Source of the DNA: Massalongia carnosa
Lineage: Eukaryota
Direction: 5' to 3'
Assembly (NCBI GenBank): GCA_965645245.1
Contig: OZ287073.1
Span: 186,001 to 250,000 of the forward strand
Length of the DNA: 64,000 nt
Position numbers and translations under genes: made by a program. Below the pieces are notes generated by a model. The model saw nothing but the letters and a program-made list of their open reading frames with translations, searched no databases and was not told the DNA's origin. Below are positions 1-45,200 of the stretch, in pieces. Numbering within the stretch: the first letter of the stretch is position 1; the number at the start of each line of letters is the position of its first letter.

Positions 1-3000
1 ACAACCTGGTTCTTATTCGTTCGGACTCGGGCAACAAATAGTGGGATCTGGAACCTAGTAAACCCAGAGACTACACCAAAGCCGTTAGATGTTCTACCGC
101 CAATCAAACCGGTATTCATCCTACCAATAGATCCAAGCACATACGACCCAGCAGCCTATGAAGTCTTCAAAGTACAAACACATATTTACAAACTGTGGTT
201 GGGGGAGTATGAAAAACAGCAAAAGGCGTACGCTGATCTTATCACGTTTATTCAAGAGACGGTGACAGTTCAGAACGCAACCTATATTCAAAAAGTAGAT
301 GCTCATCCATGGAACCTCCTTCGAGCCTTGAAAGAACGGTTGGCACCAAGCGACGAGGCTCGCTCGATCGAGATAGAGAACAAATATCACAAGCTTTGCA
401 AAGGACCTGGCAAGCAAGATATGGAAATATGGATTGAAGAATGGCAGACGGTCTATGCCGAGGGAAAAGCATACGGAATCAGTGAAGTCTCAGGAACACG
501 ACCTATTCGTGATTTCATTATGGCTATTCTCATCAAAGAGGCTGCGTTTGCTAACACTTATCTGATTGGTTTAAAGAATCGGATAGAAGAAGAATTCTAC
601 GAAATAGTAAAGGAATTTCGCAGTTATATTCGAATGCATCAAACGCAAAAGATCAATCAAAACACGCATTCAGCCTTTGCATCCGAGAAAAAGAAGGAAG
701 GACAAGGGCAAGGAGCGACATTCAATGGGTAAAAAACACCCGATCCATGTCTTTGCGGGATGATTCACTGGTATAACAACTGCTACTATCTAGTATCAGA
801 GAAACGATCCTCAAACTGGTCTCCAAACCCTGCCACCCAAGCTTAAGTTAATGAGAAGATGAAAGATCCACAAACCAAAGCTTGGGTGGAAAGACTTCTT
901 CAACGGTCCAAGCAAATGGATTTAAAAATGGATAGAAACAATAAAAAGGCTACTGAGGAGAAGGAGCTCGGAACGTTTACATCGATAAAAACTGCATTAT
1001 TTTCTCAGCAGATTGCTACACGATCAGAGATTCATTGATATTGGATAACGGGTCTAACAGCCACGTGTGCAATAACACCATGAAAGAAAGATATCAATAT
1101 CAATGAAACGCCGATGGAGAGTATCTTATTGCTAGCACACAACGCCTAGCAATAGAGAGCTATGGCACAATAAACATAACTGTGCCAACTCCATCCGGTC
1201 CCAAATCCATGACTCTGTCAAACGTCGCATATGTTTCAGATTTCATGACTAATTTAGTCTCTCAAGATTTGCTCTATATCAAAGGGGTGTATTTTGATAA
1301 TTGGAAATTTCATCTTCATAGAGATGGAACTTCTATTGCTTACGTTAAACGCCACAACGGACATTATCTCATGGACAACACAGCAAAACAAGTATCAGCC
1401 TTTCCAAGTTAAGAAGACGGAACTGGCTAACATCAAGACCGAAACAGCACAGAAATGGCATCAAATCTTAGCACATGCCTCGAATGAAGCTATACAGCAT
1501 CTCGAGACATCCGCTAAGGGGGTGAAAATATCTAGTGAGGAAGTTCCTAAGACAAATGAATGCGAGCCTTGTGTATTATCTAAAGCACATCGTATCGTAT
1601 CTCGATCATCGAAAAATGCAGAATCATCAAAAGAGCCTTTTTATAGCATCACATATGATTTCATGCTGCTTAACACTGCTATGAATAAAGATGAATGGGT
1701 CTCTCATTTCGCATGCCATGCAACCGATTTTAATATGGTATTTACCCACGCTCACAAATCTGACGCTGCTAGGATAGTCAAAGAAGCTGTCAATATTATC
1801 GAGACTCGCTTTAAATCAATGGTAGTATTTATTCGACCAGACGGAGAACGTTCATTGGGAAATGAGTTCAAAGATCTGCTGATTGAGAAAGGCATTACCT
1901 ATGAATCATCAACACCCGATACACCGGAGCAAAACGGCCACTCTGAACGAAAGGGAGGTATATTGGCCATGAAAGCTCGGGCAATGAGAATCGACGCTGG
2001 CCTACCAATCTATCTTTGGCCAGAAATCGTGCGCACCGCGGGTTATATAGCTAATCGAACCCCTATGAGAAAGCATCAATGGAAGACTCCGTATGAGCTT
2101 GTCATAGGAAATCCACCCGATCTGAGTCATCTTCGCCGGTATGGGTGCAGAGCCTACACTTTAAATAAGCAAATTTCAAAGAAACAAAAGCTACAAGAGC
2201 GTGCACATATCGGTCATCTCATGGGCTATGAAGCAAGGAATATCTTTCGGGTTTGGATACCTAGTCAACGAAAGATTATTCGCACAAGAGACGTGATGTT
2301 TGACGAAAGCATAAGCTACGATGCTCATGATATTGATTTGTTGCAAGCAATCAAAGAACCAATGCTAGAAACAACCTACGAGCTTCATGATCTGGATCCT
2401 ATCACTCAAATCACAGAAATAGATTCTGATGAAGGAGAAGGAGAGGGAGATCACACACAAAACATGGGGGAAAATGTTGAAAGCATGGAATCGCAAGATG
2501 GGAATGTGCAGGAATTGGTCTCTTCACAAATGAAAGAGAGAACTTACCTTCCAACACCAACCACGTCCGAATCATTCACAAAAAGCACGAAAGCAAAGAA
2601 AGCTGCTAAACCAAAAGCATCAAAAGATATCAACTCCAGTCTCGATACGAATAATATCTTGCCTGAGGGGGTGCGAAGACTCCGCATATCCAATCAACGA
2701 AAGGAAACGTACGCAACAGTGTTAGCAGATGCTAATAACGGCGAGTTAAATTCTTATCATGCTGCATTCTCAGCCCACATCATGGCAAGTTCTTATTACA
2801 TCACCAATAAAGAATCTAGCAAAGAATCTAGCAAAAATAACACGCTGGTTCTAAGCACCCGGTTTCATAGAGATAGCCTACCTCCCGAACCTGAACATTA
2901 TCGTCAAATGCTAAAGCACCCGCATGCAGAAGGCTTCATGCTGGCCATGAAGGTAGAGGTTCAGGCCCTTATTGCTAAGAATACCTGGACTGAAGTCGGA

Positions 3001-3362
3001 CACGAAGCAGCTGTTATTGCTGGCAAAACACCGATACCAACGAGATGGGTATTCAAATAAATTCGATGAAAAAGGTTATCTAGTCAAATACAAATCAAGC
3101 TTATGCGCTAGGGGTGATCTTCAACGCACCGAGGAAGATACATTCGCAACAACATTGGCTGCATGAATCTTTCGAGCGTTAATGGCAATCCTAGCAGCAT
3201 TTGATCTCGAAAAACGGCAATACGATGCGGTAAATGCATTCGCAAATAGCCCTATTGATGAACCAACCTACTGTAGGTTACCTGAAGGGTGGCCTGGGTC
3301 AGGATCTGGAGCTGTTAATATTCTACTATTGCTATTGCGAGCATTGTACGGTCTAAAGCAAG
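1..3362 (+). mobile_element. Degenerate Ty1/copia LTR retrotransposon (gag-protease-integrase-5' RT), 3'-truncated
   Basis: Gag-like ORF 199-732; protease-like ILDNGSNSHVCN near 1040; GAG-pre-integrase WHQILAH...CEPC; integrase IRPDGERS / TPEQNGHSER; RT start TRWVFK...ARGDLQ...DAVNAFANS...LYGLKQ. Copia domain order, several stops/frameshifts, ends abruptly after LYGLKQ. Confidence 0.93.
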
Positions 3363-3365
3363 GCG

Positions 3366-6300
3366 CGCCCCAGAGGTTGTCATCTACTCTACTGTAGGGG
3401 TTTTGAGATTAATCTGACGTTTTAGAGGCGGCCAGTGCCCGGACTATTTCGAAGATGTCGATGCAATTGCCGCAACCGACTGGTATTCCTTTGGACTGCT
3501 ATTGTTGCGCCTCTCGATAGATGGCAGAAACCCAATGGACGAATGAGAAATCATACCGACGGAATAGTCTCAGGAAGAAATACTGTTAGCGATATAGTTT
3601 CTGAAAGACACCGATTGTCTTTCCGCTCTCCTTGGTGACAGCACTGCGTCAGAAAACTCATTGCCCCTTAGTCGTTTACTAGCGAGCCTTTTGCTGAAAG
3701 ACCCCATAAAAAGGCTAGAGGCTATAGAAAAATCCACACTCGAGATTGTACCGTTCCTATCGCAAAATGCCCGTATGATTCGAGACCGCAAATTGGATCT
3801 CGAATCAGATCCTGTCCGTCTGCAATCACAGAACGAATATTTAAATGTTATCGAGCAACTATCAAGTCACCATCGTAGCAGCAATTCGGAATCGTCAGGG
3901 GAAGATAAGGAAGAGCCGGATCTTCTAAATATCTTTTCCTTCTTCTCATCTACAACTTCGAAAAGTGTAGTTCCCAATTTCGTGAGTGACCTCATTCTTT
4001 GGTGTATGTTATGGTGAACTAAAAACGTGGTCTCATTGTCTCCTTATGATTGGCGATTTTGACGCTTAAAATAGATACCCCTCTTTACCATGGGGCGTGA
4101 ACATCCGCTCAACTCAGCCACGCGTTCTCGATTAACTCAGGAACTCCTAACCATATACGAAGATGACAACGGAACTCAACATCTTCACCAGTGCCTCGAG
4201 TGTAATTCTTTGAGTAAAATTGACATGGATCCGCATCGATTGACGCCTGACGGTTTGATTAAGGAGTTACAGCAATGTAGCGAAAGTTTGAAACACACTT
4301 GCTTAACACAGCCATCATAACCCAATTCAGCACTTATCAAATCAGCAGTTCCACGTGCTCTACATCTTACTTCATCCAAAGCCGTTCTTCGAAAGGGTGA
4401 GGCGGCCTACCAACTCTTTTTGACCACTATCTCAGGATTCGGCACCAAGAGAGATATTGCTCGTGCTTTTAAGTTCCTCGAAGATGCTGCCATTTCCGGA
4501 AGTCATTACTGCTGTGTTTGGCTCTGCCGACACTCGTTGTTTATAAATCGAGATCTTTCCCTTCAAATACCTTTTCGAAAATGGCTGGCAATACCGTGTT
4601 GTTTGCAGCTGGCGTTTCATCCGAGGCTTACCTCGCCTTAGCAGAATTAGATCCCATCTTAGCCAGAACAGTAGCTGTGGCGAAAAGTAAAGTCTACAAC
4701 GGCTCTACGGCAAGCTTTGTAAACACGAAATTCAACGCCGTTTGCGATTTGTATGAGACGACCTCGGATCTGTCAATGCAATTTTCCCCGATGGTTGATG
4801 GATCACCTGCAAGACAGGACGAGTTTTTTGAAAACACGTTATTGCATTTAACCGCTGGATCGGAAAACTCCGATACATCAGTCCTAGAATACTGCACTTA
4901 GGTCCTGAAAATCGACAAGAACGTGCGGAACGCCGATGGAGTGACATCGTTGCTCATGGCTTGTCGTGTTGGGAGGGAGGAGAAAATACTGGCACTGCTG
5001 CACCTTAACGTAGATGTCGATTTGGTTTATGCTGGCGGTGAAACTCCGCTGCACTGGCTTGGCTTATTGCCGGACCCTACACGAGTATTGGAAGAATTCC
5101 TCCTACGCGGTGCCGATATCAATGCGCAAGTAACTCAAGAAAGAGCGCTACCAAGTTTTCTTGGCGGGTTGAAAAGTTTATATGTGAAAGGGCCTCCTCT
5201 CAATTGGGCAATGGCTATGGGAAATGAGATATATGTAGACGCTCTCTTGAAAAAAGGGGCGGATATCAATATGCTTGTTCTTGATAAAGTAACGCCTGTG
5301 AGATTTGCTTGCTTCCCTGGAAGATCGCAGTTCCTTGACAGGTTTTCGAGACAACCGGAATTTAAGGTTTCTAGAGAGGATGCGTCTTCAGTTATGACTT
5401 TATGGAGTGATCTGCGAATACTGAATAATTATGCCAAACCCAAAGAACAAGAGAGGGCTCTTAAGCTACTGTTGTCGACACCCATTCCGTTCCGTGATTG
5501 GGCTGAAGTCGATGCTTTTTATCAATACCTTGTCTCAGAGGCTGTGTCTGAGTGTCGGAGAGAAATCCTAGAAATTGTACTCAACGGTCTCAGCAAGAGC
5601 ATGGCGACTATAAAAGACGCAGATCCAAGCAGCCTTAAGCACGCAAAACTTCCGCTCTCACATCCAGCTTGGGTCGAACATCGCCTAGTTCACGAAGCTG
5701 CAGTCAGGGGTGATCCTAAAATTTTACACATCGTTCTCGACTACGGGGGTGACGCAACCAGTATGGACGGGTTTCAACGGAGCACCTTACATCTATTATC
5801 AGTTTTCTCGAATAACGCGGAGTCAGCCGGTATCCTTCTCGACCACGGTGCTCATTCTCTCCTGGACCACAGGACTGAGTTGGATGGCATGACTGCATTT
5901 ATGACGGCAGTGGCTAACTGTAATTTCGCAGTTGCAGATCGTCTTCTTCGCAAAACCCCTACGTAACACCGAGCGCCAGACTTTACTCTCAAGCCGTCTG
6001 ACAGGCATGGCCTTTGCAGAGCTATAGTTGTTCGGCCACCTTATCGCTTGGTCGACGACTGTGGGCGAGAAGCCGGTAGAGTACCTCTGCAGCTTGCTAT
6101 AAATCCGAGAGACCCTGGATTTGCTCTTTATCGTAGACGAGACCAAAAAATACTCCCCCCTTATGATGGCCTGCGGTATAAATTCCGGTGGAGACATACT
6201 CGACACGGAACTATTTGCTTGTTCTCGGAGGAGAAGGACCATCAATCTGCTGCTGCGCCAATTTCCCAAACAGCACCATATCGACAGTAGAGATAATCAC

Positions 6301-6627
6301 GGCAACACTGCACTTCATGTTGCAGCCTTTGTAGGAAGCAATGACATGGCAACTGCGCTTCTGGAAGCCGGCGCAAACCCAAATCTTCTCAACTCCTCAG
6401 GAGCCAACCCCTTGGATGTTTTGTTTGTCTCGGATCCCCCATACCTCTGGGGAAATCGGGCTTCAAAGAAATTTTTGGTGGAGTGTTTTGAAGCTGGAAG
6501 AAACGATATTTGCATGCAGTTGAGGAGTAAAGGTGCAACGCATGCACTTCCTCTGGCAGTGAAGAATGCCTGGGCTACGCACTTACCTTATCCATGGGTT
6601 CGAAAAATGCAAACATTGTCCCCGTGA
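3366..6627 (+). pseudogene. Protein kinase C-lobe - SEL1-like repeat - ankyrin repeat protein, 5'-truncated and disrupted
   Basis: GCC CCA GAG (APE) then a GT..AG intron; DWYSFGLLL (kinase alphaF); LLKDPIKRL; SEL1-like SGFGTKRDIARAFKFLEDAA; ankyrin motifs GETPLHW, GPPLNWA, GNTALHVAA. In-frame stops (e.g. 3544, 4899, 5964, 6025). Confidence 0.72.
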
Positions 6628-7802
6628 AAGTGCCTTGCAAGCCAAACCGCACAGATTGTTGAAGTGAATTAATCACTTGATGCATGTACGAGTATTTTTG
6701 AAGAGAATAATTTTGATTATTGTCTATCGTGGGTGTTTTATGAACATCCATCAACTAAACTACCCTTAGTCTATTCTGGTCAAGCAGTCATCAATTACCT
6801 AACCTTATCTATTAGATTAACGTTTTAGTATAACATCAACACTGATAATCTCACCCAAAATATCTACCAAGCTTGTACACAACGTCAAAAAGAAAAGAAG
6901 CTTGGGGGAAGTCTTCTGCCTCAAACTCACTCATACGAATACCCTGCCCTACCGAGTCGTGTTCAACGACTCGACCCGTCAAACAAGTTTCGACCACTTG
7001 ATATATTCTGCCACATCTAGACCCAAGGCTTTCTGCACACAAGAGTAAGCGGTTTTGCCAGACTTGTGGCTTTCTTGAGTCCCTGTATTTACCTGGCTGG
7101 GCCCCAACCAAACTCCAGTTACCAATCTCGAGAAGCACAACTCCGAGCGCATAGATGCCGTACTGTTTGCGGAATCGCGGTGAGGTCGGAGAAGAATCAG
7201 ACGGCCACAAGGACGGGTGGCGGTAATCGTTGCTACTTCGGTCCAAAGGATTCTCCAGCGAGGGTGTGGTAGGGCGGTCAGGACGCGAGAAGTCGAAACC
7301 TAGCAGGAATGGGTGGGATGGATCGAGGTCTGAGGATGATGAATAAGTCGGTGACAGGCTGAAAAGAACATTTGATGAACTGGCTGCTTTGTGAAGCCAA
7401 TCAGACGCATGAAGCTGAAGAATGATATTACAGAGAGCCGTAGCAATCTGGAACCGATCACCCAGGAACGGAGGCGTCGTTGTGCCATTTATGTACTCAT
7501 GGAGAGAGTAAGGGCGAGACGATATTGATGTTGGCAATGCAGCGTTTGATGGTTGGGGTAGTCTTGACATAGCTAGAGGCCTAAACAGAAGACCATATCT
7601 CTCAATAGACTTTACTGCAAGATACTTCGTGTCTTTGAAGTAGCCAATGCATCTGAGAAGCCCGAAATCGGCTGATCTCTCCGAGCTAAGTACCACAGCA
7701 AGCGTCTTGATGCGCGATCGTATAGTTTTCATGTCATTGAAATTTTGTTGAATTGCACTGCCCTAGTTCTGGAAATTTCTATGCTTAGTCAGCTGAATGT
7801 AT

Positions 7803-9944
7803 CCCTTCGTCTGGCAATTTGGCAGCCACCTTAAATAGGCTTAGTGAGATACCGTAGGGCTGAGTTGCGAACTTCAAAACATTCTCCCCTTTTTTTGTAA
7901 ATAAGAAGGTAAACATCAGTTGAAAATCATTAAAACATCTACAATTTCTTTAGAATAATCATGAGAGGCATTGAGATAGAAGTTCCTGACCAATCAGACG
8001 CTTTGCCCCCCTCAATTCGGAAAGAACAGGCCAAAAAGAATAAACCCAGCGTACAAAGCATAATTGACTCCATGCCCCCTCCGTCATCAAATTATTGTCC
8101 AATTTCGATCCCATTTCGAAAACCACAGCCGGGCGAGACGTTGCGCTTGATAAAGCAGACTCCTTTCAGTTTATTCTGCCTCTTCTTTAGCTTTGAAATG
8201 CTTGAAATCATAGCTAAAAACACCAATCTTAAAGCGAAAAAGAAGTATGCCCTAAACGACATCAAGAGACGTCAATGGCATGACACCACTTCTTCTGAAG
8301 TAGGAGCTTTTCTGGGAATTCTGTTATATATGGGGTATACACTGATGCCACGTCTTACTGACTATTGGAACACGTCTCCTAAATTTACCATACATGACAT
8401 GGTGATTCAAGCCATGAGTCTTTGAAGATGGGAGCAACTCAAGCGATTTTTGAAGATATCCAACCCCGACGAAGATGAGATCATTGATACTCGAGGCCCT
8501 GATTGGTGGAAAAAGCTGGAACCATTGGCCACAGACTTTCGAAAAGCATCAAAGAAATACTGGATTCCTGGAAGTCATGTGTCAGTTGACGAGCAATTGA
8601 TTTTATTCAGGGGTAGGAGCTGCCATACTATGCAAATAGTCACCAAGGCGGCTGGTGTAGGCTTCAAAATCTATAGTTTATGTCAGGAAAATTATCTTTT
8701 TGACTTCTTATTTACCTCCAAGGTGAGTAGAAAAGGCCTCAATTTGCATCGTACTAATTGCAAGACAGGTGTCCAAAATTAGTGAGTTAAAAACGCCTGG
8801 ACAATTGAAATTTCCGACAACCAAATGGGATTTGTCTCCTTCCTCCCTAGTCGTCATTCAACTGGCTCGAAGTTTACCGTCTGATGAAGGCTTGAAATAC
8901 GTCATCTTTCTGGACAACTTCTTCACAAATACGAAGCTATTCAAAGCTCTGAAAACTATTGGAATTGGTGCCTGTGGGACTTCTAAATCAGGATGCGGTT
9001 TTCCTGTTGATCTTCTACGTCTGAGGGTTGCAGCCACCAAGAATAAGGACTGGGGAAAGAAGGCATTGATGACGGTACCTGCAAATAAAAGTAAAAAATC
9101 AAACATTGATGACGGGGACATTCTGTGTATGACATGGGTGGATTTAAACACCGTGCAATTCATGACCACGGTTCATACAATTGAGGATTTGAAGACTTCT
9201 TTCTACAAGAATTCCCGTCGACGTCATGGAATTCCTGCAAATTCCAGAGTCATCGTTGATGATGAAGAAGAAAAGCTTCCATTTCCCATGCCCATCGTGG
9301 AATATAACCAGCACATGTGCGGGTCAGATAGGAATGCTCAGCAAAGAGCATATTATTCACCTCAATGATCTGATCGTCGCTACTGGTGGTCAATTTTCAT
9401 CTTTCTTCTGGATGCAGCCGTTCTAAATGCCTTCAAATTGTGGAGAAGTCTGTATCCGAATTCAAAACTCAGCCATTTGGACTTTCAAAAAGAAATAGTA
9501 AATGCCCTACTATCCAATCAAGCCGGTGCCCTACGGAAACGTCCGACAGATGTCATAGTTACTACTAATCAAGACGTTAATAAAGACGTCGAGTCAACAT
9601 GCAAATGGGAGCATTTGAATAAGAAGGACTACTGTTTGGCCTGCAAAAGGCAAGTGCCAAGACTCAAACGACGCCGACCACTTGCGGAAATTGATGAAAA
9701 TTGCACCAAAAGACGACGTGCAAGTCAGACCAGATGGCAATGTAAGAGCTGTAGACCATGTTGCAAAAAGGAGGCATGTTGGGAAATTTTACATAGATCA
9801 TGAGGTGTGATTGAGGTGTTGTACCCATTATCGTTGAAAAGGGAAAATCTGATTGGCCAGATTAAAGTTATTAGTCATTACCCGGAGACGGCGCGTGTAA
9901 AATTGAATATTACCTAAATGGCTGCCAAATTGCCAGACGAAGGG
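7803..9944 (+). mobile_element. piggyBac-superfamily DNA transposon
   Basis: Perfect 26-bp TIR CCCTTCGTCTGGCAATTTGGCAGCCA (7803-7828 / 9919-9944); flanks GTAT / ATAT; encloses a piggyBac transposase. Confidence 0.93.
7961..9803 (+). pseudogene. piggyBac transposase with premature stops
   Basis: VSVDEQLILFRGR, FLDNFFT, YNQHMCGSD motifs; Cys-rich C-terminus (CLAC...CKSCRPCCKKEAC); likely intron ~8723-8769; TGA stops at 8423 and 9366. Confidence 0.9.
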
Positions 9945-11441: not shown

Positions 11442-11493
11442 GAAAGATTTTTATATGTAAAAGTTTCTAATTAACAAAATTAAACTTATCATC

Positions 11494-34009: not shown

Positions 34010-37000
34010 ATGCCAGATAAAGATTTATGCCTATTATCTCTTGATGGCGGTGGAGTGCGAGGGCTATCGTCACTCGCAATCCTCAAGCGACTGATGGAGA
34101 TCATCAATCCGGATGCGCCGCCGAAGCCATGCGAGTATTTCAACATGATCGGAGGGACAAGTACCGGTGGATTGATTGCTATCATGCTAGGTCGTCTTGA
34201 GATGAATATCGATGAATGTATTGATGCCTATGTCGCATTGTTCGATCAAGTGTTTAAAAAAAAGCGGCATCGTGTCACAATAAACGGACACGTGCAGGGG
34301 AGATTCGACACGGAAGAGCTGGAACGGTCGATTCGAGAAATCGTAAAGCGGAAGGAGAAGGCAGGGGAAAATGCTCTCCTCAAAGGATCAGAGAATCAGC
34401 AATGCAAGGTGTTAGTGCTTCGGAAGTTGCATTTACACGTATAATTCTAGTGATACTAATGAAAGCTAGATTTGTATGCGCTCTGAGCAAAGAGACTGCC
34501 GACACAGTCCTTTTCACATCGTATCCTTCTCGAGGATCATCAGATATGTACCATAAGACACGAATTTGGGAGGCAGCTCGAGCCACATCTGCCGCATCAT
34601 CCTTCTTTGATCCAGTAAAAATTGGCCAGTTTGAAGAAGAGTTTGTCGATGGGGCTGTGGGGGCTAACAATCCTGTCGCACATCTTTGGAACGAGGCCAA
34701 AAGTGTGTGGTCAGATGAAGCGCTTGAGGGAAACATCAAATGCCTGATATCTATCGGTACCGGTGTTCCATCCTTGGATTCTTATGGCTCAAGCCTCTTC
34801 GAGATTGCAAAAACGTTGAAAGACATTGCAACAGAGACAGAAAAAACAGCGGAGTCTTTTCATCGAGCGCATTCCGATCTCGACGATGGGAATCGCTACT
34901 TTCGTTTCAATGTTTCTCATGGGCTTGAGAGTATTGGACTCGAAGATGCAGCACAGAAGAACAAGATCATGGCCGCCACAACCCGCTATGTGGCTTTGGA
35001 AAGCGTGATGAAACAAATGAAGCTTTGTGGAAAGAATCTTTCAACACGAGAATGTGCGTCAATGTTTGCTTGATAATTCTTGAGTTACTAAATCCTTGAA
35101 TAGACAGTGGCTCATATAAAGTGCCGTTCAGTTTGAAAGGCTTACCCCGTGTACCCAAATTCATAGCTCGTGATCAGGAAATGAATGACCTTAAGAATAC
35201 CCTTTTTCCCAAGCCAACTCGTGAGACTCGCCGGAAGGTGTTCGTTTTACACGGACTAGGCGGCTCCGGCAAGACTCAGCTAGCAATCGAGTTCGCTCAA
35301 AGATCGCAGAAGATTTTCAGTTCTATTTTTTGGCTAAACGGCGATAGTAAGGAAAGTGTAAGTCAAAGTCTTGCACAGATTGCTCGGCAATTACCCCCAG
35401 ATCAGATTCCGGATTCATGTAGAAAATTCTCTAAAACATCCCCTGAAGAGCTAGATGAAATCATTAGCAATATTCTTATTTGGTTCAGTCAACATGAAAA
35501 CAATCAATGGCTTCTCATTTTCGATAATGTCGATCGTGATAGTTCCCTTGAGGTAAATGATCCTCAATCATATGATGTGGAAGATTTTTTCCCGGAAGCC
35601 GATCATGGCTCTATTTTAATCACAAGCCGATTACGACAGCTTCGACAACACGGGCAGGACCGGCAACTTGGAAGGATGAGCGATCTACAAGGAGTAGAAG
35701 TATTACGATGCAGGATAGGACGATCAGTTGAAGGTAATGACATTCGAGCAACAGTCTTAATCCAATTTACTAAGCATTATATAGGCCTTGATAGAATCGT
35801 CGAGAAAGTGGGTGGTCTCCCACTTGCACTTGCTCATGCAGGCTCCTATATCCACGGAACAACTACAAGTGTGAACGACTATATTCGATACTATGAAGAG
35901 ACTTGGGAGAAGCTTCACAACAACAAAACGACCCGATTAAAAGATTATCCTCGTAGCATTTTATCTACGTACACCATTTCCTATGAATATGTGCAACGCA
36001 ATGACGCGAGCGCTGCAAAATTGCTTAATCTGTTTGCATATCTCGATCATTCAGATTTATGGTATTCTTTATTCGCACCTATACTTGATGAAGACGAGAG
36101 CATTATCCCAAAAGAGACATTACCTATCTGGTTTTTATGTAGCATGAAGACGGAATTTGATTTTACACAGAAGATTCAAATACTGCTGGATTACTCCTTG
36201 ATAGAAACACGATATGAGATCTTATCTTATGCGATTCATCCAATTATACATGACTGGTGTTTTCACATGAATCTAACCTCTAACGACGAGATAGCTTCTT
36301 TAGCAGTTTCTGTAATCGGTTCCGCATGTCATTCCACTGACAGTTCAGCAAACTGGCTGCATCGAAAACGACTGGCTGGTCATTGTAGTTATGTTCACTT
36401 CTGGATTGGAAAAAAACATCAAAACCTCGAAAGGAATATGAGATGGGAACAGGTACTATATCCTTCGTATCATGCTATTGGCTATTTTTCAAACGAACAA
36501 GGCAAGCTGAGCGAGGCCGAAGAGATGTATCTGCGGGCATTGACAGGATACGAAAAGGCCTGGGGTCCTGATCACACATCAACGCTCGCCACAGTCAACA
36601 ATCTAGGAAGTCTGTATAATAATCAAGGCAAGATGAACGAGGCCGAAGAGATGTATCTGCGGGCATTGACAGGATACGAAAAGGCCTGGGGTCCTGATCA
36701 CACATCAACGCTCGACACAGTCAACAATCTAGGGCTTTTGTATAAAGATCAAGGCAAGATGAACGAGGCCGAAGAGATGTATCTGCGGGCATTGACAGGA
36801 TACGAAAAGGCCTGGGGTCCTGATCACACATCAACGCTCAACACAGTCAACAATCTAGGGCTTTTGTATGTAGATCAAGGCAAGATGAACGAGGCCGAAG
36901 AGATGTATCTGCGGGCATTGACAGGATACGAAAAGGCCTGGGGTCCTGATCACACATCAACGCTCGACACAGTCAACAATCTAGGAAGTCTGTATGCAGA

Positions 37001-39347
37001 TCAAGGCAAGATGAACGAGGCCGAAGAGATGTATCTGCGGGCATTGACAGGAAAGGAAAAGGCCTGGGGTCCTGATCACACATCAACGCTCGACACAGTC
37101 AACAATCTAGGGGCTTTGTATGCAGATCAAGGCAAGATGAACGAGGCCGAAGAAATGTATCTGCGGGCATTGATAGGATACGAGAAGGCCTGGGGTCCTG
37201 ATCACACTTCAACGCTCAACACAGTCAACAATCTAGGAAATTTGTATAAAGATCAAGGCAAGATGAACGAGGCCGAAGAGATGTATCTGCGGGCATTGAC
37301 AGGATACGAAAAGGCCTGGGGTCCTGATCACACATCAACGCTCAACACAGTCAACAATCTAGGGCTTTTGTATGTAGATCAAGGCAAGATGAACGAGGCC
37401 GAAGAGATGTATCTGCGGGCATTGACAGGATACGAAAAGGCCTGGGGTCCTGATCACACATCAACGCTCGACACAGTCAACAATCTAGGAAGTCTGTATG
37501 CAGATCAAGGCAAGATGAACGAGGCCGAAGAGATGTATCTGCGGGCATTGACAGGAAAGGAAAAGGCCTGGGGTCCTGATCACACATCAACGCTCGACAC
37601 AGTCAACAATCTAGGGGCTTTGTATGCAGATCAAGGCAAGATGAACGAGGCCGAAGAAATGTATCTGCGGGCATTGATAGGATACGAGAAGGCCTGGGGT
37701 CCTGATCACACTTCAACGCTCAACACAGTCAACAATCTAGGAAATTTGTATGTTGATCAAGGCAAGATGAACGAGGCCGAAGAGATGTATCTGCGGGCAT
37801 TGACAGGAAAGGAAAAGGCCTGGGGTCCTGATCACACATCAACGCTCAACACAGTCAACAATCTAGGGCTTTTGTATGCAGATCAAGGCAAGATGAACGA
37901 GGCCGAAGAGATGTATCTGCGGGCATTGACAGGAAAGGAAAAGGCCTGGGGTCCTGATCACACATCAACGCTCGACACAGTCAACAATCTAGGAAATTTG
38001 TATAAAATCCAAGGCAAGATGAACGAGGCCGAAGAGATGTATCTGCGGGCATTGACAGGAATGGAAAAGGCCTGGGGTCCTGATCACACATCAACGCTCG
38101 ACACAGTCAACAATCTAGGGGCTTTGTATGCAGATCAAGGCAAGATGAACGAGGCCGAAGAAATGTATCTGCGGGCATTGATAGGATACGAGAAGGCCTG
38201 GGGTCCTGATCACACATCAACGCTCAACACAGTCAACAATCTAGGGCTTTTGTATAATAATCAAGGCAAGATGAACGAGGCTGAAGAGATGTATCTGCGG
38301 GCATTGACAGGAAAGGAAAAGGCCTGGGGTCCTGATCACACATCAACGCTCGACACAGTCAACAATCTAGGAAGTCTGTATAAAAGTCAAGGCAAGATGA
38401 ACGAGGCCGAAGAGATGTATCTGCGGGCATTGACAGGAAAGGAAAAGGCCTGGGGTCCTGATCACACATCAACGCTCGCCACAGTCAACAATCTAGGGCT
38501 TTTGTATGCAGATCAAGGCAAGATGAACGAGGCCGAAGAGATGTATCTGCGGGCATTGACAGGAAAGGAAAAGGCCTGGGGTCCTGATCACACATCAACG
38601 CTCAACACAGTCAACAATCTAGGAAATTTGTATAATAATCAAGGCAAGATGAACGAGGCCGAAGAGATGTATCTGCGGGCATTGACAGGAAAGGAAAAGG
38701 CCTGGGGTCCTGATCACACATCAACGCTCGACACAGTCAACAATCTAGGAAGTCTGTATAAAAGTCAAGGCAAGATGAACGAGGCCGAAGAGATGTATCT
38801 GCGGGCATTGACAGGAAAGGAAAAGGCCTGGGGTCCTGATCACACATCAACGCTCAACACAGTCAACAATCTAGGAAATTTGTATAATAATCAAGGCAAG
38901 ATGAACGAGGCCGAAGAGATGTATCTGCGGGCATTGACAGGATACGAAAAGGCCTGGGGTCCTGATCACACATCAACGCTCAACACAGTCAACAATCTAG
39001 GAAATTTGTATAATAATCAAGGCAAGATGAACGAGGCCGAAGAGATGTATCTGCGGGCATTGACAGGATACGAAAAGGCCTGGGGTCCTGATCACACATC
39101 AACGCTCGCCACAGTCAACAATCTAGGAATTCTGTATGCAGATCAAGGCAAGATGAACAAGGCCGAAGAGATGTATCTGCGGGCATTGACAGGAAAGGAA
39201 AAGGCCTGGGGTCCTGATCACACATCAACGCTCGACACAGTCAACAATCTAGGAAGTCTGTATGCAGATCAAGGCAGGATGAACGAGGCCGAAGAGATGT
39301 ATCTGCGGGGCTCAAGCGGCTTACCTGTGCCAGGTATGACATTCTAG
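34010..39347 (+). CDS. Fungal NLR: patatin-like phospholipase - NB-ARC - TPR (PLP-1-like architecture)
   Basis: Patatin DGGGVRG, GTSTG, FVDGA; P-loop GLGGSGKT; Walker B WLLIFDNVD; GLPLAL; 22 full 42-aa TPR units. Introns 34411-34469, 35054-35103 and probably 35734-35784 give one open frame. Confidence 0.93.
36498..39309 (+). repeat. Highly conserved 126-bp TPR tandem array (22 units plus partial)
   Basis: CAAGGCAAG at 36498 to CAAGGCAGG at 39270 spans 2772 bp = 22 x 126. Confidence 0.95.
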
Positions 39348-39843
39348 GCAGGACAAGGCCTGATGACATATTCAAACGTCAAAATGAAATCAAACCAATA
39401 CCCTCTGAAAGCTAGTTGAATCTTGCAGGCAATGGTGGAATTGAAATTCTATCGTTCAGCTGAGAGGGAACTTGAAGGTAAGGGGTACAAGGGCTCAAGT
39501 TGTACGGGGGAAGTTTCAATTTCTTGGCATCTTGTCTCGCTGTGCCAAATCGGATCAAATAGGAATTGAAAGAGAGTAGAGATTTAAAAGGGAGTAGTGA
39601 TTGAAAAGGGATAGGGACTAAAAAGCCTTGGGCATTTTTTCTGGCTGAAGATATCATGTTTCACAGGAGTTTAATATCGTTTTTTAATATTGCTACTATT
39701 GTACATAACGGTCTAGATAGTGGCCCCAAGGATAAAACCACTATCTCTGACTTCATGTGTGTTGCGCCGAGATGCTCTCCATCTATAACGCGGTACATGT
39801 ATGATTTAGGCAGCCATGTTAGATGAATATTAGATGGAGGCAG

Positions 39844-40041
39844 CTATCCTTTGTAAGAATACAGTGATTGATAGGTAAGGTCAGCATACCCACGATTGCC
39901 CCCGAAGTGAGCGACCCAAGTCTGACCTGTCCATGGCCGATGATCTGGTCCGTGATGATGAGTCTTTACACAGAAGGGACATTCTACGTATACTCCTAGG
40001 CTATTCCATTCGGTCGCTGTTGCAAATGGTACGGTAGCCAT
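39844..40041 (-). pseudogene. Gene fragment with CxxC-HxH motif, resembling the N-terminus of fungal ankyrin-deaminase proteins
   Basis: MATVPFATATEWNSLGVYVECPFCVKTHHHG...TWVAHF...YQSLY. Confidence 0.4.
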
Positions 40042-40349
40042 GATTTTGAAGATGGGATGTTGCGAGGGAGTAGAGGAGCCGAAATTGGGAGCTAGAGCGA
40101 TACGAGAGTTGATGCTGATGATGACGCAGCAGTCATAGGCTACAAGGAGCGAAGAACCCATAAGAACCCGAGATGGTCATGAGACTTACCATTCGACGCA
40201 TCGAAAACAGCAGAAGGCTATGGAATTAGACAAGCTCGATGCCGAACCGAAGCTTTTCTATGGGGAGGCAACCTATTATGGCCGCTCGTAAGGTGGTGAC
40301 CTCAAAAGGAATTTATATAACCAATCTGCACGCAAAGGCCGAATGACAG

Positions 40350-42530
40350 TCAAGTGGGCGTCTTGTGAACCAACTCCGCATGGTTCTGCAAGTGCATTGT
40401 GCTTGTCAAAATATCTTGACACCTTGGATTAGAGCATGCGATCGGATGACCGTCCTGATGATGACGAAGGTGTTTACAATGGAAGTGCTTTTTCAGATCG
40501 TAGTGGCTGTGGAAAGACTTCAGACGTGTCTCGGTGGGTAGCGCTACACAGCCGAGGCAAAAGATACATTGAGTGGGTTCGCATTCAATCGGGACGGAGT
40601 CTGAAAGAGAGGCCGGATCGAGGACAGATGGTGGTGTCAGATGCCGTTCCTTGATGACCGACGCGGAAAGTTTTGAACGACGTGGACGCTTGCTTTCCTG
40701 CAAGCGACAAAGGGCTGTCAAAGCATTGATCGCTTCCACCCGCCGTTTGCACTCTTCCTCTGAGGATGACTTCACGAAGGTGAGGAGGGTATCGATGACC
40801 CGGACACGCTCCTCGAAGACGTAATCCTCTGCCTTCGCCGTCTCCAGTTCTTCCGACGGCAGTCCTTTCAGCTTTCGTTGAATGTCGATCACCGGCTGCT
40901 CCCTCTTATACCTCGCTTTGACTCTTGTAAAAGAGCCTCCTCGGCCGCCGTTTTATGTTGCGATGAGCTTGATATGCCTTTTGGTACTTATCGTACACTG
41001 ATGTCCCCTTCATGCTCGCGATGGGTCCATGATTGTCTTTGATGAACTGGAACATTTTCTTTTGCCTCCGGCGAAGGAGTCTCACCTCTGGCTGACGATC
41101 GACCTGGGCTTTTTGGGCGTCATTGAGCTTCCGAGGCCGTCGTCGATCAATCGTACGACTCATTCCACTGGCGAGCCGTATCAACGCATTTTGCGGCTTC
41201 AAACCATGATAGGCGGCCCCGGCATCACTTGTGATATACCTCGAGAGATAGATTTTTAAAGAACACGGTGGAGTTGTGATGTTGCAAAATCAGATTCCGT
41301 TGCGATTCACTGATAAAGCCTGTGCAAGGGTCAGCGAAAAGCTCAAAAGAAGATTGACAGAGGTCGTGTTACACACTTGCTGTTGTCGAGAGCTTCGCTA
41401 TTGCCGCGTCGAAAGATGTATGAACCGGTGGGAAGCTTCATGCCGGTGACGCTTCCAAGGGTTATCATCCGTGAGCGAAGAGTACTGTCAGTACTGTCAG
41501 GCAGAGCTTTGTCATCCGAAATTCGAACTCCGTTCACGGTGAATTCGGATCGGCGGAAGAGGAGAACGTGTAGCATCGTTTCCTTAAGGGGAAACGGCAG
41601 CTGTTTCTATCCCCGGGGGATCCGGAGACGGAATAACTGTTCGGCAGAAATTAATTCGGGAGCGGCGAAGGCCTGATCGATAAAGATCAAAGTGAGTAGG
41701 TTCAGACGAGGACAAAGCAACAGGCATGGTTCGTCAGGCTCGTCAGGAATCCTGAACTCATTTCTATGATACTTGTCAGTCGTTCAGCGAAACTGTCCGT
41801 CTCGACGAAGAAAGCACAAAAGGGCAACATGGACGTTTCTTTATCGCCTAGATAGCCCTTCGTATTCTTGAATGCGATTTCAATCAACCGTCGAGGAAGC
41901 TCCCCTCCTCCGAGATCCGCAAGCAAGGTGATCTTAACATCTTTGTAGCACACACCCAAGAGGGCAGCAGGACGGTTTTCTGTGATTCCGGCTAGCTGCA
42001 TGATCAAGGCTAGTTGTACACGGTGCCGCTCGTGATCAAAGACGATCCCGACGGAGAGAAACAATGTCTTCAGGAGCTCGAACTCGTCCTCGGCCCGCAT
42101 GATGAGCTTCTTCTTCTTCTTCTTCTTCTTCTCAGTCCTTAACCCATGCTTCAGAGCGAGCCGTTGTCTCGCCTAGTACTGGTTAATCAATAGAGGCGTA
42201 GAATGGGGCTCTCATACCCCGTGCATCTGGCTTTTGATAAGCGGGTCGATCTCTAGACAGCCAGTCTCTTTCTTTAGTGTTTGCAGGATACTAGCCGTAC
42301 TCAGCCGATCTTTTCGAATGGAGAGTAGCCAGTCGAAGAAGACGTAGAGGATGTTGATAGAGATCTCATTGAGAGTCATGACGGGGTTCTTCCCAGTGAA
42401 TTCGCAATATCTGTCAGCCTCGATCAGATTTCGCCAGTCCACGATAGTAGTAGTAGCATCTCCTTACCGATACCAAAGGTTCTTAATCTAGCTCTATAGA
42501 TCCTCGCTGCTATCCTTGTAAACTCGTTCA
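40350..42530 (-). pseudogene. DUF3435 tyrosine recombinase (Starship captain family), degraded
   Basis: HERHRVQLALIMQLAGITENRPAALL, FKNTKGYLG, CLLLCP, SYIFRRGNSEALD, QRNLILQH, YLSRYIT, GMSRTIDRRRPRKL, RRVEAINALTALC, QCIFCLG, HLQNHAELVH; introns plus several frameshifts/stops; no clear start. Confidence 0.88.
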
Positions 42531-45200
42531 GGGAAAAATTAGAGTCGACGAGCGTGGACGATAGGTGATCGACGTGAAGGAGGGACGGCGAAAATGGAAG
42601 TGGGAGAATAAGAGGGTTGGAAAGGCGAAGATGAAGGGTAGAGGGACACGAAGAGAAAGGTCGTCAGAGACGATGGGAACGGAGGGGAAGCTGAGCAGAA
42701 CAGCCGATTCTGGAGGTCGGGGGGAACGATGAAATAAATACCAGTTGTCGGACAAGGACCATGAGGGCCAGCTGAGTGATGATGCTTGAGGCATGAAACG
42801 CTCGACGTGGTAAGGTGATGCGCAAGAGCGACCGGGGACGGGTAGGGCGGCGGGAAAAATCCAGCAATATAGAAGCTGAAACAAATAATGTGAAGAGAGA
42901 AGCTGCAATTTATGATTTGAAAGTGGAGGACTGAGCGCCTTGAGGTCTACTTTCGCGTTAGCAAGTGCGTTCTAGACGTGCGAACTAGCTAACTTATACT
43001 CGATATGCGTTTGGGAAGAGAATTTTGATATGTGGCTTTTAGATGGCAGACAGTCTTTCATTATATTTATTATCTTATAAGTATTCCTCACAGTCATTAA
43101 GATGAGAGATGAACCACTGCATTTCATTTCAGGCTTGTTTTCTCTGCCCAAAAAAAGGTCAGTAATGTTTTGATCTCGAAAATATAGGCACACATTAACT
43201 CACTTCGCAATGACTCAGAGAGGCCATCTCTTCTATGTTTGCTAATAAATAACACACCAGGCTGTAACTAAATAACAAGGGTGTTTACATTGATATATGA
43301 CCTCGGTATAATCACACATGTTAAGATGAAAGGCAGCAGAAACGAGATTAAAGAATCTAACAACCTGGCGAGAGATGGAAGTGCTTCTGAAGGAGAGAGA
43401 GGTTTAAATAGACTTTGCATATACGGCGAAGAAAGCCTCTTTCTATATGCTTTCCGATCTCGTTCTCCAGACAAAGTCATCATCCTGCGCCCCTAATCTC
43501 AACAGAGCAGAATACATAGTCATCGCACATTCTTGTCCAGAACCCCTCCAGCAATAGTAGCTGCATACTTTATACTAGTCAGTAGATGTTTCATGACCAA
43601 ATCCATTGGCTGACGTAAAGAAAACCGAGCCCATAGGGATCATAAGCCCATAAGCTGCCTTCACAGCGAATCAAAGTATCATGTACGCCACAGATGTCTG
43701 CGTTGAGGACGTACATGAAAACCGGGTATTGAGCTTGATTTATTGATCTAAGCTCTTGGTGATTGGAGAATGATTTACGTTTTAGATAGACACTTGAAAT
43801 TGACACTTGGAATTGAGGTGATGATTGCTTGCATTGAAAGGATTTTGCACCCATTCTCTCAGTTACTAGAATGTTGGGATTCGGTTAATAGATTACCGTA
43901 TCCGAGCTACATATCGCTTACTGCTTGACCACTAAACTGGCTGACACCGGGGAACCATACGGTCTTGGGCAGATTGGAGCTGAATTTCGGGTGAAACTGG
44001 CCTCCGGTGATAGAGCAGCAGTGACGCACATATCCGCTTGAGAATCTATGGAGATCTGAGAGATCATAGGATGGGTTGAAGTAGAGACTGAGTTTATTGA
44101 ACTACTGAGCTCGATAGAGCAGAATATATAGCTCAAATGATAACTAAGTACACATGTGAAAGGGGACATACAGAGGACATGTGAAAGGGGACATGTCGAG
44201 TGCATGTGATTGAACATGTGAAAGAGTGAGATTATTCCGGCTGATAGAATCTATAAAGTCCTCAGTTTGAAAAAAGTTCATCAATCCGGAAGACTTTGTA
44301 AACCCTAAACCTGCTAACAGCAGCGAAGAATGTCCTTTGATGTCAGAAATTGATCTATCTGATTGACGGATGAATTCTGCTTGCTCTGAGATTGAGTTGT
44401 CGAAGAGTGAGATAGCCGATGGAGGATATTGTCTATTGCAATGTATTTCAACTCTGCTTTCTCTGTAGGCTATGATCTCGCGGTGGAATCATCCTGCAAC
44501 CTTCAACGAAGCGACTTTGAAACAAAGGACTCACTCCTTACGGAACATGACGTGTATCTTCTTGATTTTAATCCTTATATTTGTTTTTATGATCCTTTGA
44601 CTAGCTACGAGTTATTGATGAAGGCTTAAAGTGTTCAGAATACTCGCTTAGCCCCATTAGTTCTAGCTCAGCCCTGCGGGCTGCCATGACTGCTATAAGC
44701 CTTAGTAACCTGAAGTTGAAGTCTCGCGCAGCGCTTGCGCAGCGAGAAAATTTTTTCTTTTGAAGCAATTTAAACCGTCAAATGGGGCATCCTTCAACGA
44801 GTAGATCCGTGCCTGAATTGTCTGATTTGATGTGCTGTGAGGTGTAGGATCGCCGTGCAAAACCGACGCCCTGCTTGGCCCTGGTTGTTGCGAAAGTCGA
44901 CATTTGCGCTTCGCAATCGAATCACAAAGGGGTTTTGCTAGAATTTTAAAACTGGGTTTGCTGAAAATAGCATCTTCTGAATAGAAGAAGCATCTTACCC
45001 CGAGTAGAATTAACGTAGCGCTGATGGCGCGATACGTGATGCGGTTGCACGCCTCGTCACAAGATGTCCCACCCAGTCACAGGAACGAGAAGAAGGTACT
45101 ACGGGCACATTACGAGCGATCGCTTCTTAATAGAAACGATGTTACAGGCCTCCATGACTAGTACTCGTAGAGAGAAAGAAAGGTATCATTGACCTATCTA

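Follow-up and report, generated by a model that had tools for sequence, protein, structure and literature searches.

A decayed DUF3435 captain in Massalongia carnosa and its metagenome relatives

A broken tyrosine recombinase facing a long run of NLR-type and other genes raises the question of whether the locus is what remains of a Starship, and if so where that element began and how far it reached. We examined this in 64,000 nucleotides of the Massalongia carnosa assembly (contig OZ287073.1, positions 186,001 to 250,000), hereafter the window. A sequence-only reading had proposed a decaying element headed by a DUF3435 captain, with cargo extending leftwards for about 40 kb. The features at its proposed head are as follows.

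40,353-42,535, minus strand: captain pseudogene, DUF3435 tyrosine recombinase (Pfam; tblastn against P0002, P0003, P0005 and P0007; frame analysis)
42,536-43,020, minus strand: leader and projected 5' terminal region (nhmmer leader profile; pairwise blastn projections)

Four ORF pieces match positions 2-91, 139-215, 233-342 and 343-418 of the 418 positions of the Pfam DUF3435 model (E 1e-14 to 5e-25), and residues 33-679 of a 679-aa relative, P0003, align by tblastn to 42,535->40,353 in frames -1/-3/-1/-2/-3. The broken minus-strand recombinase of the sequence-only reading is thereby confirmed, as is the match to the DUF3435 model that it had proposed as a check; the model span is complete in the pseudogene, and full-length relatives score E 9e-137. 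Judged by its sequence, the gene is of the DUF3435 'captain' type. The open frame with catalytic residues that marks a functional captain was not found: three in-frame stops (42,494-6, 42,488-90 and 41,607-9) each replace a conserved residue, about four frameshifts interrupt the frame (42,529-34, about 41,258, about 40,946-50 and 40,921/2), and neither a start codon nor the first ~32 residues could be recognized in the window by tblastn against relatives or frame analysis. The conserved stretches QRNLILQH and Y..RY are legible, with a frameshift between them. Some of the breaks are probably introns, being GT..AG intervals of ~48-69 nt that relatives are without; we count two to four such probable introns. 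No RIP signature was found in the window.

Relatives of this captain are encoded by 131 of 328 candidate metagenome stretches, from which we retained 76 loci. The window's captain nests in the family clade with support of 100/100 in a tree of 38 rows (37 metagenome loci of the family plus the window), and this captain family is probably abundant in lichen-associated fungi. An identical 13-nt motif lies 432-495 bp upstream of the captain start in 19 of the 36 loci that have the captain N-terminus and >600 bp of upstream sequence, with a variant of <=3 mismatches in two further loci of the 36; across all 76 loci the exact motif occurs once each in 20, always on the captain's strand. The conserved family end reads TA[AG]C[GC][AG]GGGGACG... 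and is preceded by T[TA]ATAAA[TA]TT. Beyond it, the 19 loci with >=150 bp of flank fall into 15 unrelated upstream flanks, and the adjoining 100 bp are 68-93% AT in 16 of 16 loci. The captain thus comes first and points inward in the relatives; in none of the family's loci did up to 12 kb of downstream sequence contain an inverted copy of the motif.

The window's own end was projected from leader homology. A leader profile of 16 loci matches 42,715-42,540 at profile positions 309-473 (nhmmer, E 6.8e-9), family leader homology being detectable only at 42,540-42,765, and pairwise blastn with L029, L003 and L031 projects the original 5' terminus to about 42,985-43,020. The profile's terminal 330 columns reach only E 2.4 against the window (nhmmer), the family end motif is not recognizable there, and a degenerate TAACGCGAAAG... 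string at 42,960 is without statistical support as a terminus; we propose that the outermost ~250-300 nt at the 5' end were eroded or replaced. A terminus at ~43.0 kb is close to the sequence-only placement just right of ~42.5 kb (end coordinate 42,950). It also agrees with a published rule by which a Starship's upstream boundary is no more than 7 kb, and usually no more than 2 kb, from its captain (PMC11162782). With the recombinase gene decayed and the outer 5' end eroded or replaced, the window copy can no longer move, in keeping with the earlier view that the element is now immobile.

Related loci bear on whether such captains carry anything. Copies with different upstream DNA have long downstream stretches in common: 12,140 bp at 98.3% identity in L008/L027, 12,530 bp at 100% in L023/L051, 4.3 + 5.8 kb at 99% in L029/L030, and 7.1 kb in L029/L032. 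Thus, within three captain lineages, 7-12.5 kb or more of downstream DNA is common despite differing flanks, and since the copies are near-identical and their upstream flanks unrelated, the family appears to carry cargo. Among 90 ORFs scanned in 11 loci, opposite-strand NB-ARC/TPR NLRs lie downstream of the captain in L003, L009, L011 and L033, with Pkinase in L009 and L011 and HeLo in L009; HET, NACHT_N and OTT_1508 deaminase matches lie downstream in L030 and L064 (the L030 NACHT_N match is sub-threshold), SIR2 and ankyrin in L023, and DUF7924 in L008. NLR-type ORFs were therefore found downstream in four of the 11 scanned loci and on none of the upstream sides, which are ORF-poor. Diverged family members conserve only ~3.1 kb (leader, captain and ~350-400 bp). 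Past the captain stop, relatives have mosaic modules common to captain subgroups, and no AT-rich flank or repeated end was found there in the related loci. Because a conserved end meets unrelated flanks and shared downstream DNA holds NLR/HET/HeLo-type genes, the family has, so far as these sequences can tell, Starship architecture.

The gene types downstream of the family's captains are the same as those in the window, where the following features lie left of the captain.

33,920-39,347, plus strand: patatin-NB-ARC-TPR NLR gene (Pfam; 126-bp repeat family; splice-like sequences)
28,457-28,725, no strand assigned: relic of one TPR repeat unit, remnant of another NLR (blastn and tblastx to the L011 TPR array)
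23,477-25,675, minus strand: DUF7924 gene, right arm of a ~2-kb inverted duplication (Pfam, E 5.8e-61)
17,784-19,292, plus strand: ankyrin-repeat gene ending in an SsdA_C-type deaminase domain (Pfam Ank_2, E 8.5e-9; SsdA_C, E 8.3e-16)
14,207-17,702, minus strand: MULE transposon inside the DUF7924 left arm (Pfam MULE, FAR1 and AFT; repeats; flanks)
12,134-14,046, plus strand: broken second DUF7924 copy, left arm of the inverted duplication (Pfam; repeat comparison)
6,851-11,019, minus strand: HeLo gene with DUF7580-like C-terminal part, split by a piggyBac-like transposon (Pfam)
4,473-6,627, plus strand: ankyrin-repeat gene (Pfam)

The best candidate for cargo is the patatin-NLR. Patatin is encoded by ORFs at 33,920-35,073 and the NB-ARC domain with its TPR array by an ORF at 35,100-39,347, all on the plus strand; the array has 23 units of a 126-bp repeat at 92-96% identity, and the gene is probably intact, with two predicted GT..AG introns. 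Its stop and that of the captain are 1,006 bp apart, tail to tail, so the Pfam domains and the spacing agree with the patatin-NLR reported ~1 kb downstream of the captain. Its best-matching relatives, at 50-62% identity, are proteins from lichen-associated fungi. It is only 39% identical to the L003 NLR, and the common cargo is therefore of the same type rather than orthologous.

What the sequence-only reading called a nuclease-fold gene is presumably the DUF7924 gene, an intact 672-aa ORF at 23,657-25,675 on the minus strand, whose sole nuclease lead is a PDDEXK_12 cluster (score 0.84). Its inverted repeat is 89% identical over 1.9 kb; the left arm picks up again beyond the MULE at 17,813-17,884, and the arms differ by 82 transitions and 48 transversions, with no RIP bias. 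DUF7924 genes also occur in or near the related captain loci L008, L027, L028, L076 and L011. The ankyrin-deaminase gene described earlier was recovered by Pfam, and of the proposed HeLo-kinase only the HeLo domain was recovered: the gene runs 11,019->9,948 and resumes at 7,762->6,851, and its C-terminal part gives only a DUF7580 match of 24.1 bits, under the 27-bit cut-off. A HeLo protein of L009 matches the architecture of both halves, its C-terminal part aligning to 7,651-7,106. Nor did the kinases of that reading stand up, the window holding only two Pkinase traces (22.2 and 18.2 bits against a gathering score of 31.7) and three kinases from related loci giving nothing better than E 0.11 by tblastn. 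An ORF at 21,332-21,940 has no usable ESM Atlas match. Among recurrent Starship accessory genes (DUF3723, ferric reductase, patatin-like, NLR), the window has the patatin-NLR fusion; neither Pfam nor tblastn with the DUF3723 of L009 found DUF3723 in it, no ferric-reductase family is among the Pfam matches of its ORFs of 120 aa or more, and no 5S rDNA or tRNA target is present in the window.

The element was also said to be filling with transposons, and several were found in its neighborhood: a Copia fragment at 1-4 kb, a piggyBac-like element at 7,800-9,947 with 29-bp perfect inverted ends, which splits the HeLo gene, and the MULE, which has TIRs of ~110 bp and a perfect 9-bp target-site duplication (GAGCCACCA). 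On the captain's other side lie a Crypton-like gene (NDC10_II + GCR1_C) 2.7 kb upstream of it, a second NLR (54-60 kb) and several transposons. With NLRs and TEs on both sides, such richness characterizes the region at large rather than the proposed element alone.

The ends of the element were sought in related sequencing runs. Every one of the 30 bins of 39,450-54,300 is represented in each of runs X1, X2 and X3, and X6 covers 41,225-48,348. Captain and right flank occur together in all four of these related runs, and no contig in them skips the captain; this is the situation that the sequence-only reading had named as refuting it, and it is weak evidence because the runs were found through holding this DNA. 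The empty site and direct repeats that it had expected were not found. Starship boundaries are defined against an empty site, with direct and sometimes also inverted repeats at both ends; neither the window nor any of the related loci yielded a 3' end or a direct or inverted repeat of this kind. The claim that ~40 kb leftwards form one element thus gained no 3' end, repeat or empty site.

What the window probably preserves is the 5' portion, now dead, of a Starship-type cargo transposon from a lichen-associated captain family. In working copies of the family the DUF3435 recombinase would be the first gene, ~430-500 bp inside the conserved end, in an element sitting in AT-rich DNA; cutting and rejoining at the ends by the recombinase would let everything downstream of the captain travel as cargo. 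In the window, stops, frameshifts and loss of the start would have left the copy immobile, and other transposons would then have landed in and around it. The convergent patatin-NLR, together with the DUF7924, deaminase and HeLo genes further left, would be former cargo.

One pair of repeats in the window offers a different set of ends.

19,575-19,637, plus strand: 63-bp repeat, left copy (repeat comparison)
44,638-44,700, minus strand: 63-bp repeat, right copy, at a switch from AT-rich to GC-rich DNA next to the Crypton-like element (repeat comparison)

Inverted, 98% identical, sharp-edged on both sides and 25,000 nt apart, these copies bracket 25.1 kb (19,575-44,700), with the captain 2.1 kb inside the right end and pointing inward. 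We rejected them as termini, and an element so bounded is scarcely credible. In the family, the genuine 5' ends are found 432-495 bp from the captain and have another motif, and from its conserved leader the window's own end is projected to about 43.0 kb, ~1.7 kb short of the repeat. None of the 76 related loci contains the 63-mer, and its 26-nt core was not found in metagenome contigs. In X1 and X3, contigs with other flanks point to a dispersed repeat; the loose ends seen at 44,700 in X2 and X3 are just the flank of the other copy, and the repeat abuts the Crypton-like element. Also very improbable is that the captain is alive, its frameshifts being homopolymer errors of the assembly and its remaining breaks introns. 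Among the 12 of 75 indels and 40 of 632 substitutions listed between window and related runs, single-base differences at 42,534 (an A6 run), 41,258 (TTTTTAAA) and 40,921 are missing from X1 and X3 at full depth and from X6 where X6 covers, with X2 mixed at two of the three sites. Removing all three brings back the family consensus (..ALLQEVKARYK.., ..VFFKN/IYLSRY..), and several other apparent breaks look like GT..AG introns, but the three stops at conserved residues, a fourth frameshift near 40,948 and the unrecognizable start and first ~32 residues speak against a living gene.

An account that we consider rather unlikely makes the captain a solitary relic, either a ~3-kb unit made up of leader, captain and a short tail or a piece of some element, lodged in a pre-existing NLR- and TE-rich compartment whose genes are residents and not cargo. 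The ~3.1-kb limit of conservation between diverged family members, the lack of a boundary or empty site for the window, and the NLRs and TEs flanking the captain on both sides would fit it, and most known captains are without a bounded element (559 bounded elements against 10,212 'solo' captains; PMC11162782). It is harder to square with the 7-12.5 kb that near-identical copies have in common downstream of unrelated flanks, with mosaic modules where a 3-kb unit would show an AT-rich flank or repeated end, and with NLR-type ORFs that, the sub-threshold NACHT_N of L030 aside, lie downstream in four of the 11 scanned loci and upstream in none. We therefore retain the dead Starship-type element as the preferred reading.

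Crypton-type transposons also use a tyrosine recombinase, but theirs belongs to a different family and their elements are small and without cargo; the pseudogene matches DUF3435 and not Crypton-type domains. For Hephaestus (captain HhpA), transposition, direct repeats and target site have reportedly been demonstrated experimentally, whereas the family described here was characterized by sequence comparison. The family resembles Hephaestus and the general Starship model in having a DUF3435 tyrosine recombinase first and cargo after it, and in its AT-rich insertion sites, a niche described for several families (PMC11162782). Tangerine, a Starship of Xanthoria parietina, a fungus that forms lichens, is similar in its type of host, in a DUF3435 captain as first gene near the 5' end (1,390 bp in Tangerine), in patatin-like and NLR accessory genes and many nested transposons, and in occupying the same site in all close relatives examined (PMC13486527). 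Unlike the window, it has DUF3723, RIP-affected repeats, a demonstrated empty site, 4-5 bp direct repeats and 10-12 bp inverted repeats, none of which we found, and its captain is described there as 283 aa long and without a core-binding domain, against ~660-680 aa in the window's family. That paper also reports 16 further tyrRs of Xanthoria that lack boundaries, several of which lie near PLP or NLR genes. The Starship-like elements of Peltigera likewise have captain-like recombinases in TE-rich, variable regions of lichen-fungus genomes, and genes downstream of their captains were inspected as possible cargo; these are six elements of 29-45 kb with insertion/deletion polymorphism and a captain that is not at the 5' end (bioRxiv 10.64898/2026.06.16.732702). 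In the window's family, the captain lies near the conserved end in the 19 of 36 loci noted above.

The window's copy is itself an ordinary fossil. To our knowledge, Starships in lichen-forming fungi were reported only in 2026, the known cases are one bounded element (Tangerine) and the non-canonical Peltigera elements, and most captain genes of lichen fungi have no known element. What this copy exposes is a captain family present in multiple copies, whose 5' end is sharply conserved at 15 different sites and which has >12 kb of immune-type genes moving with it. It is possible, and we suggest it tentatively, that the family represents a canonical and recently active lineage of Starships in lichen-associated fungi, inserting at AT-rich T[TA]ATAAA[TA]TT sites and shuttling interchangeable non-self-recognition and immune-type modules (NLR, HET, HeLo, kinase, deaminase, SIR2, DUF7924) between genomes, with the window's 40 kb as a fossil ship and DUF7924 as a previously unnoticed recurrent passenger. 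The 13-nt end motif is a tool for finding element ends without an empty site, and the family is a candidate for transposition assays. It also offers a concrete case in which to ask whether lichen fungi owe the spread of their allorecognition and NLR repertoires to giant transposons.

The window is fungal DNA. Its genes were mapped with Pfam scans of 49 stop-to-stop ORFs of at least 120 aa and seven selected ORFs across its length, together with 122 ORFs of at least 55 aa from its unannotated stretches.

Annotated features of the window (coordinates, strand where assigned, feature and evidence)
1-4 kb, plus strand, Copia fragment (Pfam on ORFs)
4,473-6,627, plus strand, ankyrin gene (Pfam on ORFs)
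11,019 to 6,851, minus strand, HeLo gene, interrupted by a piggyBac-like element at 7,800-9,947 (Pfam)
12,134-14,046, plus strand, DUF7924 gene, broken copy (Pfam)
14,207-17,702, MULE with a perfect 9-bp target duplication (Pfam, repeats)
17,784-19,292, plus strand, ankyrin-SsdA_C deaminase gene (Pfam)
23,657-25,675, minus strand, DUF7924 gene, intact ORF, inverted duplicate of the broken copy (Pfam)
28,457-28,725, TPR relic, left of the captain
33,920-39,347, plus strand, patatin-NB-ARC-TPR NLR, tail-to-tail with the captain (Pfam)
42,535 to 40,353, minus strand, captain, a DUF3435 pseudogene (Pfam, tblastn)
45,201-48,076, minus strand, GC-rich Crypton-like gene with NDC10_II and GCR1_C (Pfam)
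49.1-50.8 kb, pogo-type (DDE_1) and Tc1 remnants (Pfam)
54,140-60,083, minus strand, NACHT-ankyrin NLR (Pfam)
61.7-64 kb, plus strand, second Copia (Pfam)

The sequence-only reading had described a neighbourhood of NLR, kinase, nuclease-fold, deaminase and HeLo genes to the left of the captain, and this was largely right, apart from the kinases, which were not borne out, and the nuclease fold, which is putative. After kinase searches and a tblastx comparison of 19.3-33.95 kb with related loci, 25.7-33.9 kb is essentially without annotation. No tRNA gene, 5S rDNA or any Rfam family matched anywhere in the window. The patatin-NLR has its best relatives, at 50-62% identity, among proteins carrying names of lichen-associated fungi, all others being at most 42% identical, and the comparison of protein relatives gave no signal of horizontal transfer for this gene. 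Both NLRs carry long arrays of near-identical repeats, 23 TPR units of 126 bp (36,372-39,443; 92-96% identical) and 26 ankyrin units of 99 bp (54,447-57,221; 90-96% identical), the hypervariable-repeat pattern known for fungal NLRs. The DUF7924 region is duplicated in inverted orientation over ~2 kb at 89% identity (12,134-14,206 plus 17,703-17,884 against 25,424-23,477), with a 5.6-kb spacer containing the ankyrin-deaminase gene; the MULE entered the left arm after the duplication.

The captain, the tyrosine recombinase that drives Starship transposons, is decayed. Four ORF pieces match positions 2-418 of the DUF3435 model, and a 679-aa relative aligns by tblastn over residues 33-679, the first ~32 residues being unrecognisable in the window. 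A protein search in which seven of 706 candidates reached E<=1e-3 found the closest database proteins to be 56-63% identical across the C-terminal 200 aa, two of them named for the lichen-forming fungi Heterodermia speciosa and Teloschistes chrysophthalmus; the DUF3435 domain is complete in these relatives. Stops at 42,494-6, 42,488-90 and 41,607-9 each coincide with the loss of a conserved residue, and frameshifts lie at 42,529-34, about 41,258, about 40,946-50 and 40,921/2. Some frame changes correspond to GT..AG intervals missing in relatives, and judged from these intervals several are probably introns. RIP was rejected as the cause of decay, since its composite index is negative in 32 of 32 bins of 2 kb and an excess of C-to-T changes is absent between the duplicated DUF7924 arms.

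We compared this part of the window with related sequencing runs. Eight runs were listed for 39,701-49,700, and six contained part of it (shares of 0.23-0.59). Contigs of four (X1, X2, X3 and X6) were aligned to 39,450-54,300 at 90% likeness or more; two others, X7 and X8, were left out of the alignment when next to none of their sampled words matched, which is not evidence of absence. X1, X2 and X3 cover 30 of 30 bins, and X6 covers 41,225-48,348 alone. Of 632 substitutions and 75 indels, 40 and 12 respectively were listed. These include an extra base after 40,921, present at full depth in X1, X2 and X3, and the loss of a single base at both 41,258 and 42,534. The two losses are seen at full depth in X1, X3 and X6; in X2 they account for 14,168 of 22,268 at 41,258 and 18,439 of 42,788 at 42,534. 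Two of the listed single-base differences restore the family consensus reading of the captain. From these differences, at least three of the captain frameshifts are either private to the window or assembly errors.

None of the aligned contigs of X1, X2, X3 and X6 skips the captain within 39,450-54,300, and hence no empty site came to light; as the runs had been selected for containing this DNA, the evidence is weak. Upstream of the captain, 225 bp (43,721-43,945) and 205 bp (44,041-44,245) are missing in all four runs; these small insertions, flanked by direct repeats of 6 bp (ACCGGG) and 9 bp (AGAATCTAT), look MITE-like. Contigs of X1, X2 and X3 have six other letters in place of the 1,196 bp at 52,677-53,872, a further insertion or deletion difference between the window and its relatives. 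One 3,075-nt contig of X6 starts with a loose end, which we take to resemble a cDNA-synthesis adaptor. X6 may thus come from RNA, in which case the captain's 5' half, the upstream region and the Crypton-like gene would be transcribed.

For the captain family, seven relatives were aligned and the alignment served to retrieve DNA from metagenome_contigs; 131 of 328 stretches encode relatives, and 76 loci were kept. The window captain is 64-81% identical in DNA to these loci, plain blastn similarity ending at 42,528-42,536. A maximum-likelihood tree was built from the 42 full-length loci and the window (43 rows, reduced to 38 distinct ones by removing five identical rows; the 34 partial loci were left out). 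The window captain falls within the family clade (100/100) on a branch of its own, with the shortest path to the group of loci L003, L015 and L029 and a top identity of 75%.

The family has a recognizable 5' end. In all-against-all comparisons, the similarity of many pairs sets in abruptly 430-500 bp ahead of the captain start, the DNA farther out being unrelated. The multiple alignment at this boundary reads AT-rich flank, T[TA]ATAAA[TA]TT, then TA[AG]C[GC][AG]GGGGACGGC..GGCTGCC..CGGCAGGTTCGGACGCTGCTTTTGAC. An exact 13-mer, the end motif, occurs in 20 of 76 loci, once in each and on the captain's strand. In the 36 loci that include the captain N-terminus plus over 600 bp of upstream sequence, it lies at -432 to -495 in 19 and as a near variant in two, and was not found in the rest; the L023 group has a related end at about -270, seen in L023 and L051, which have unrelated flanks, and also in L067. 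The 19 loci with enough flank contain 15 unrelated upstream flanks, and the 100 bp before the end is 68-93% AT in 16 of 16 loci examined. AT-rich DNA is reported in PMC11162782 as an insertion niche of Starships. No inverted copy of the motif was found in the up to 12 kb of downstream DNA of the related loci.

The claim that the element's 5' boundary lies just right of ~42.5 kb proved about right. A profile of the family 5' region matches window 42,715-42,540 at profile positions 309-473 (E 6.8e-9), and pairwise searches extend the leader similarity to 42,765. Counting back to the motif projects the original end to about 42,985-43,020, where the terminus has eroded or been replaced; the profile gives only E 2.4 for the terminal part. 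At 42,960 a TAACGCGAAAG string lacks significance as an end motif, and a 15-mer at 18,846 on the plus strand, with three mismatches to the motif, was dropped since chance alone would give ~0.8 such matches per strand.

A 63-bp repeat offered another pair of candidate termini: copies at 19,575-19,637 and, inverted, at 44,638-44,700 are 98% identical and 25.1 kb apart, with the captain 2.1 kb inside. We rejected this pair. Contigs of X2 and X3 have loose ends at 44,700 that are the other copy's flank, and what might have been an empty-site junction there is the reverse complement of the flank at 19,548-19,574; other flanks were also seen in X1 and X3. The 26-nt core has no match in metagenome_contigs, the 63-mer is missing from all related loci, and the repeat lies ~1.7 kb outside the family-predicted 5' end. 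The repeat region matched no RNA family at E<=1. Its edges are sharp, one copy adjoins the Crypton-like element, and further copies may exist in related genomes. The Crypton-like gene lies in a GC-rich island (44,701-48,577; 0.58 versus ~0.45 around it); it shares the captain's strand and sits 2.7 kb upstream of it. In X2 and X3 the summed contig depth over the island exceeds that over the captain, and loose ends occur before 48,578 in X2, a hint of a multi-copy element, depth not being copy number.

Downstream of the captain, loci with unrelated upstream DNA have long stretches in common: 12,140 bp at 98.3% in L008 and L027, 12,530 bp at 100% in L023 and L051, 4.3 and 5.8 kb at about 99% with a 2.65-kb indel in L029 and L030, and 7.1 kb at 92% in L029 and L032. 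More distant members conserve only the leader, the captain and ~350-400 bp. Sequence after the captain's stop falls into 3-4 types found across captain subgroups, a mosaic pattern and not a transposon end. Pfam scans of 90 non-captain ORFs of at least 130 aa in 11 loci gave the following candidate cargo.

Genes downstream of the captain in related loci (Pfam)
L003 and L033, opposite strand, DUF676-NB-ARC/AAA_16-TPR NLRs
L011, NB-ARC-TPR and Pkinase
L009, TPR, Pkinase, TPR and HeLo
L030 and L064, BTB, NACHT_N, OTT_1508 deaminase and HET
L023, SIR2 and ankyrin
L008, DUF7924
L042, PNP_UDP_1 and transposases
L007, TatD and DUF3433

On the upstream sides of the scanned loci, ORFs of at least 130 aa are few or absent. 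The genes left of the window captain are of the types found in the family: a tail-to-tail NLR, a TPR relic, DUF7924, deaminase, HeLo and ankyrin genes. One locus, L076, has a DUF7924 gene 88% identical in DNA to the window's beside a degenerate captain. A literature search on DUF7924 turned up a single paper, which does not concern Starships. At L076:4,311-11,136, DUF7924, an ankyrin-like stretch and a captain remnant with an internal deletion follow one another within 7 kb, the order of the first two being that of the window's left DUF7924 copy and ankyrin-deaminase gene; tandem or permuted elements are possible there. The flank beyond the 5' end of one element contains a DUF3723 gene, and in several loci the captain is present twice, in some cases with the further copy inverted, a pattern suggestive of nested or adjacent elements (loci listed: L009:3,779-6,761; L051:4,279-6,453; L015/L016; L033:20,148-20,564).

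The architecture of the relatives, captain first and cargo downstream, fits the Starship definition of PMC11162782, under which elements also have direct repeats, occasionally inverted ones too, and an upstream boundary that is mostly no more than 2 kb from the captain. For lichen fungi, PMC13486527 gives Tangerine as the sole bounded element, with 16 further Xanthoria tyrRs without boundaries; elements in Peltigera have the captain away from the 5' end, according to bioRxiv 10.64898/2026.06.16.732702. The Starship reading proposed for 1-42,950, a decaying element whose captain points left into ~40 kb of putative NLR and effector cargo, is plausible and gains strength from the family evidence. 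For this copy, though, the defining test failed: no boundaries were set against an empty site, and no 3' end was found. What the window contains is a dead member of an already known kind, and the family-level end motif and cargo pattern are a more interesting product than the window copy itself.
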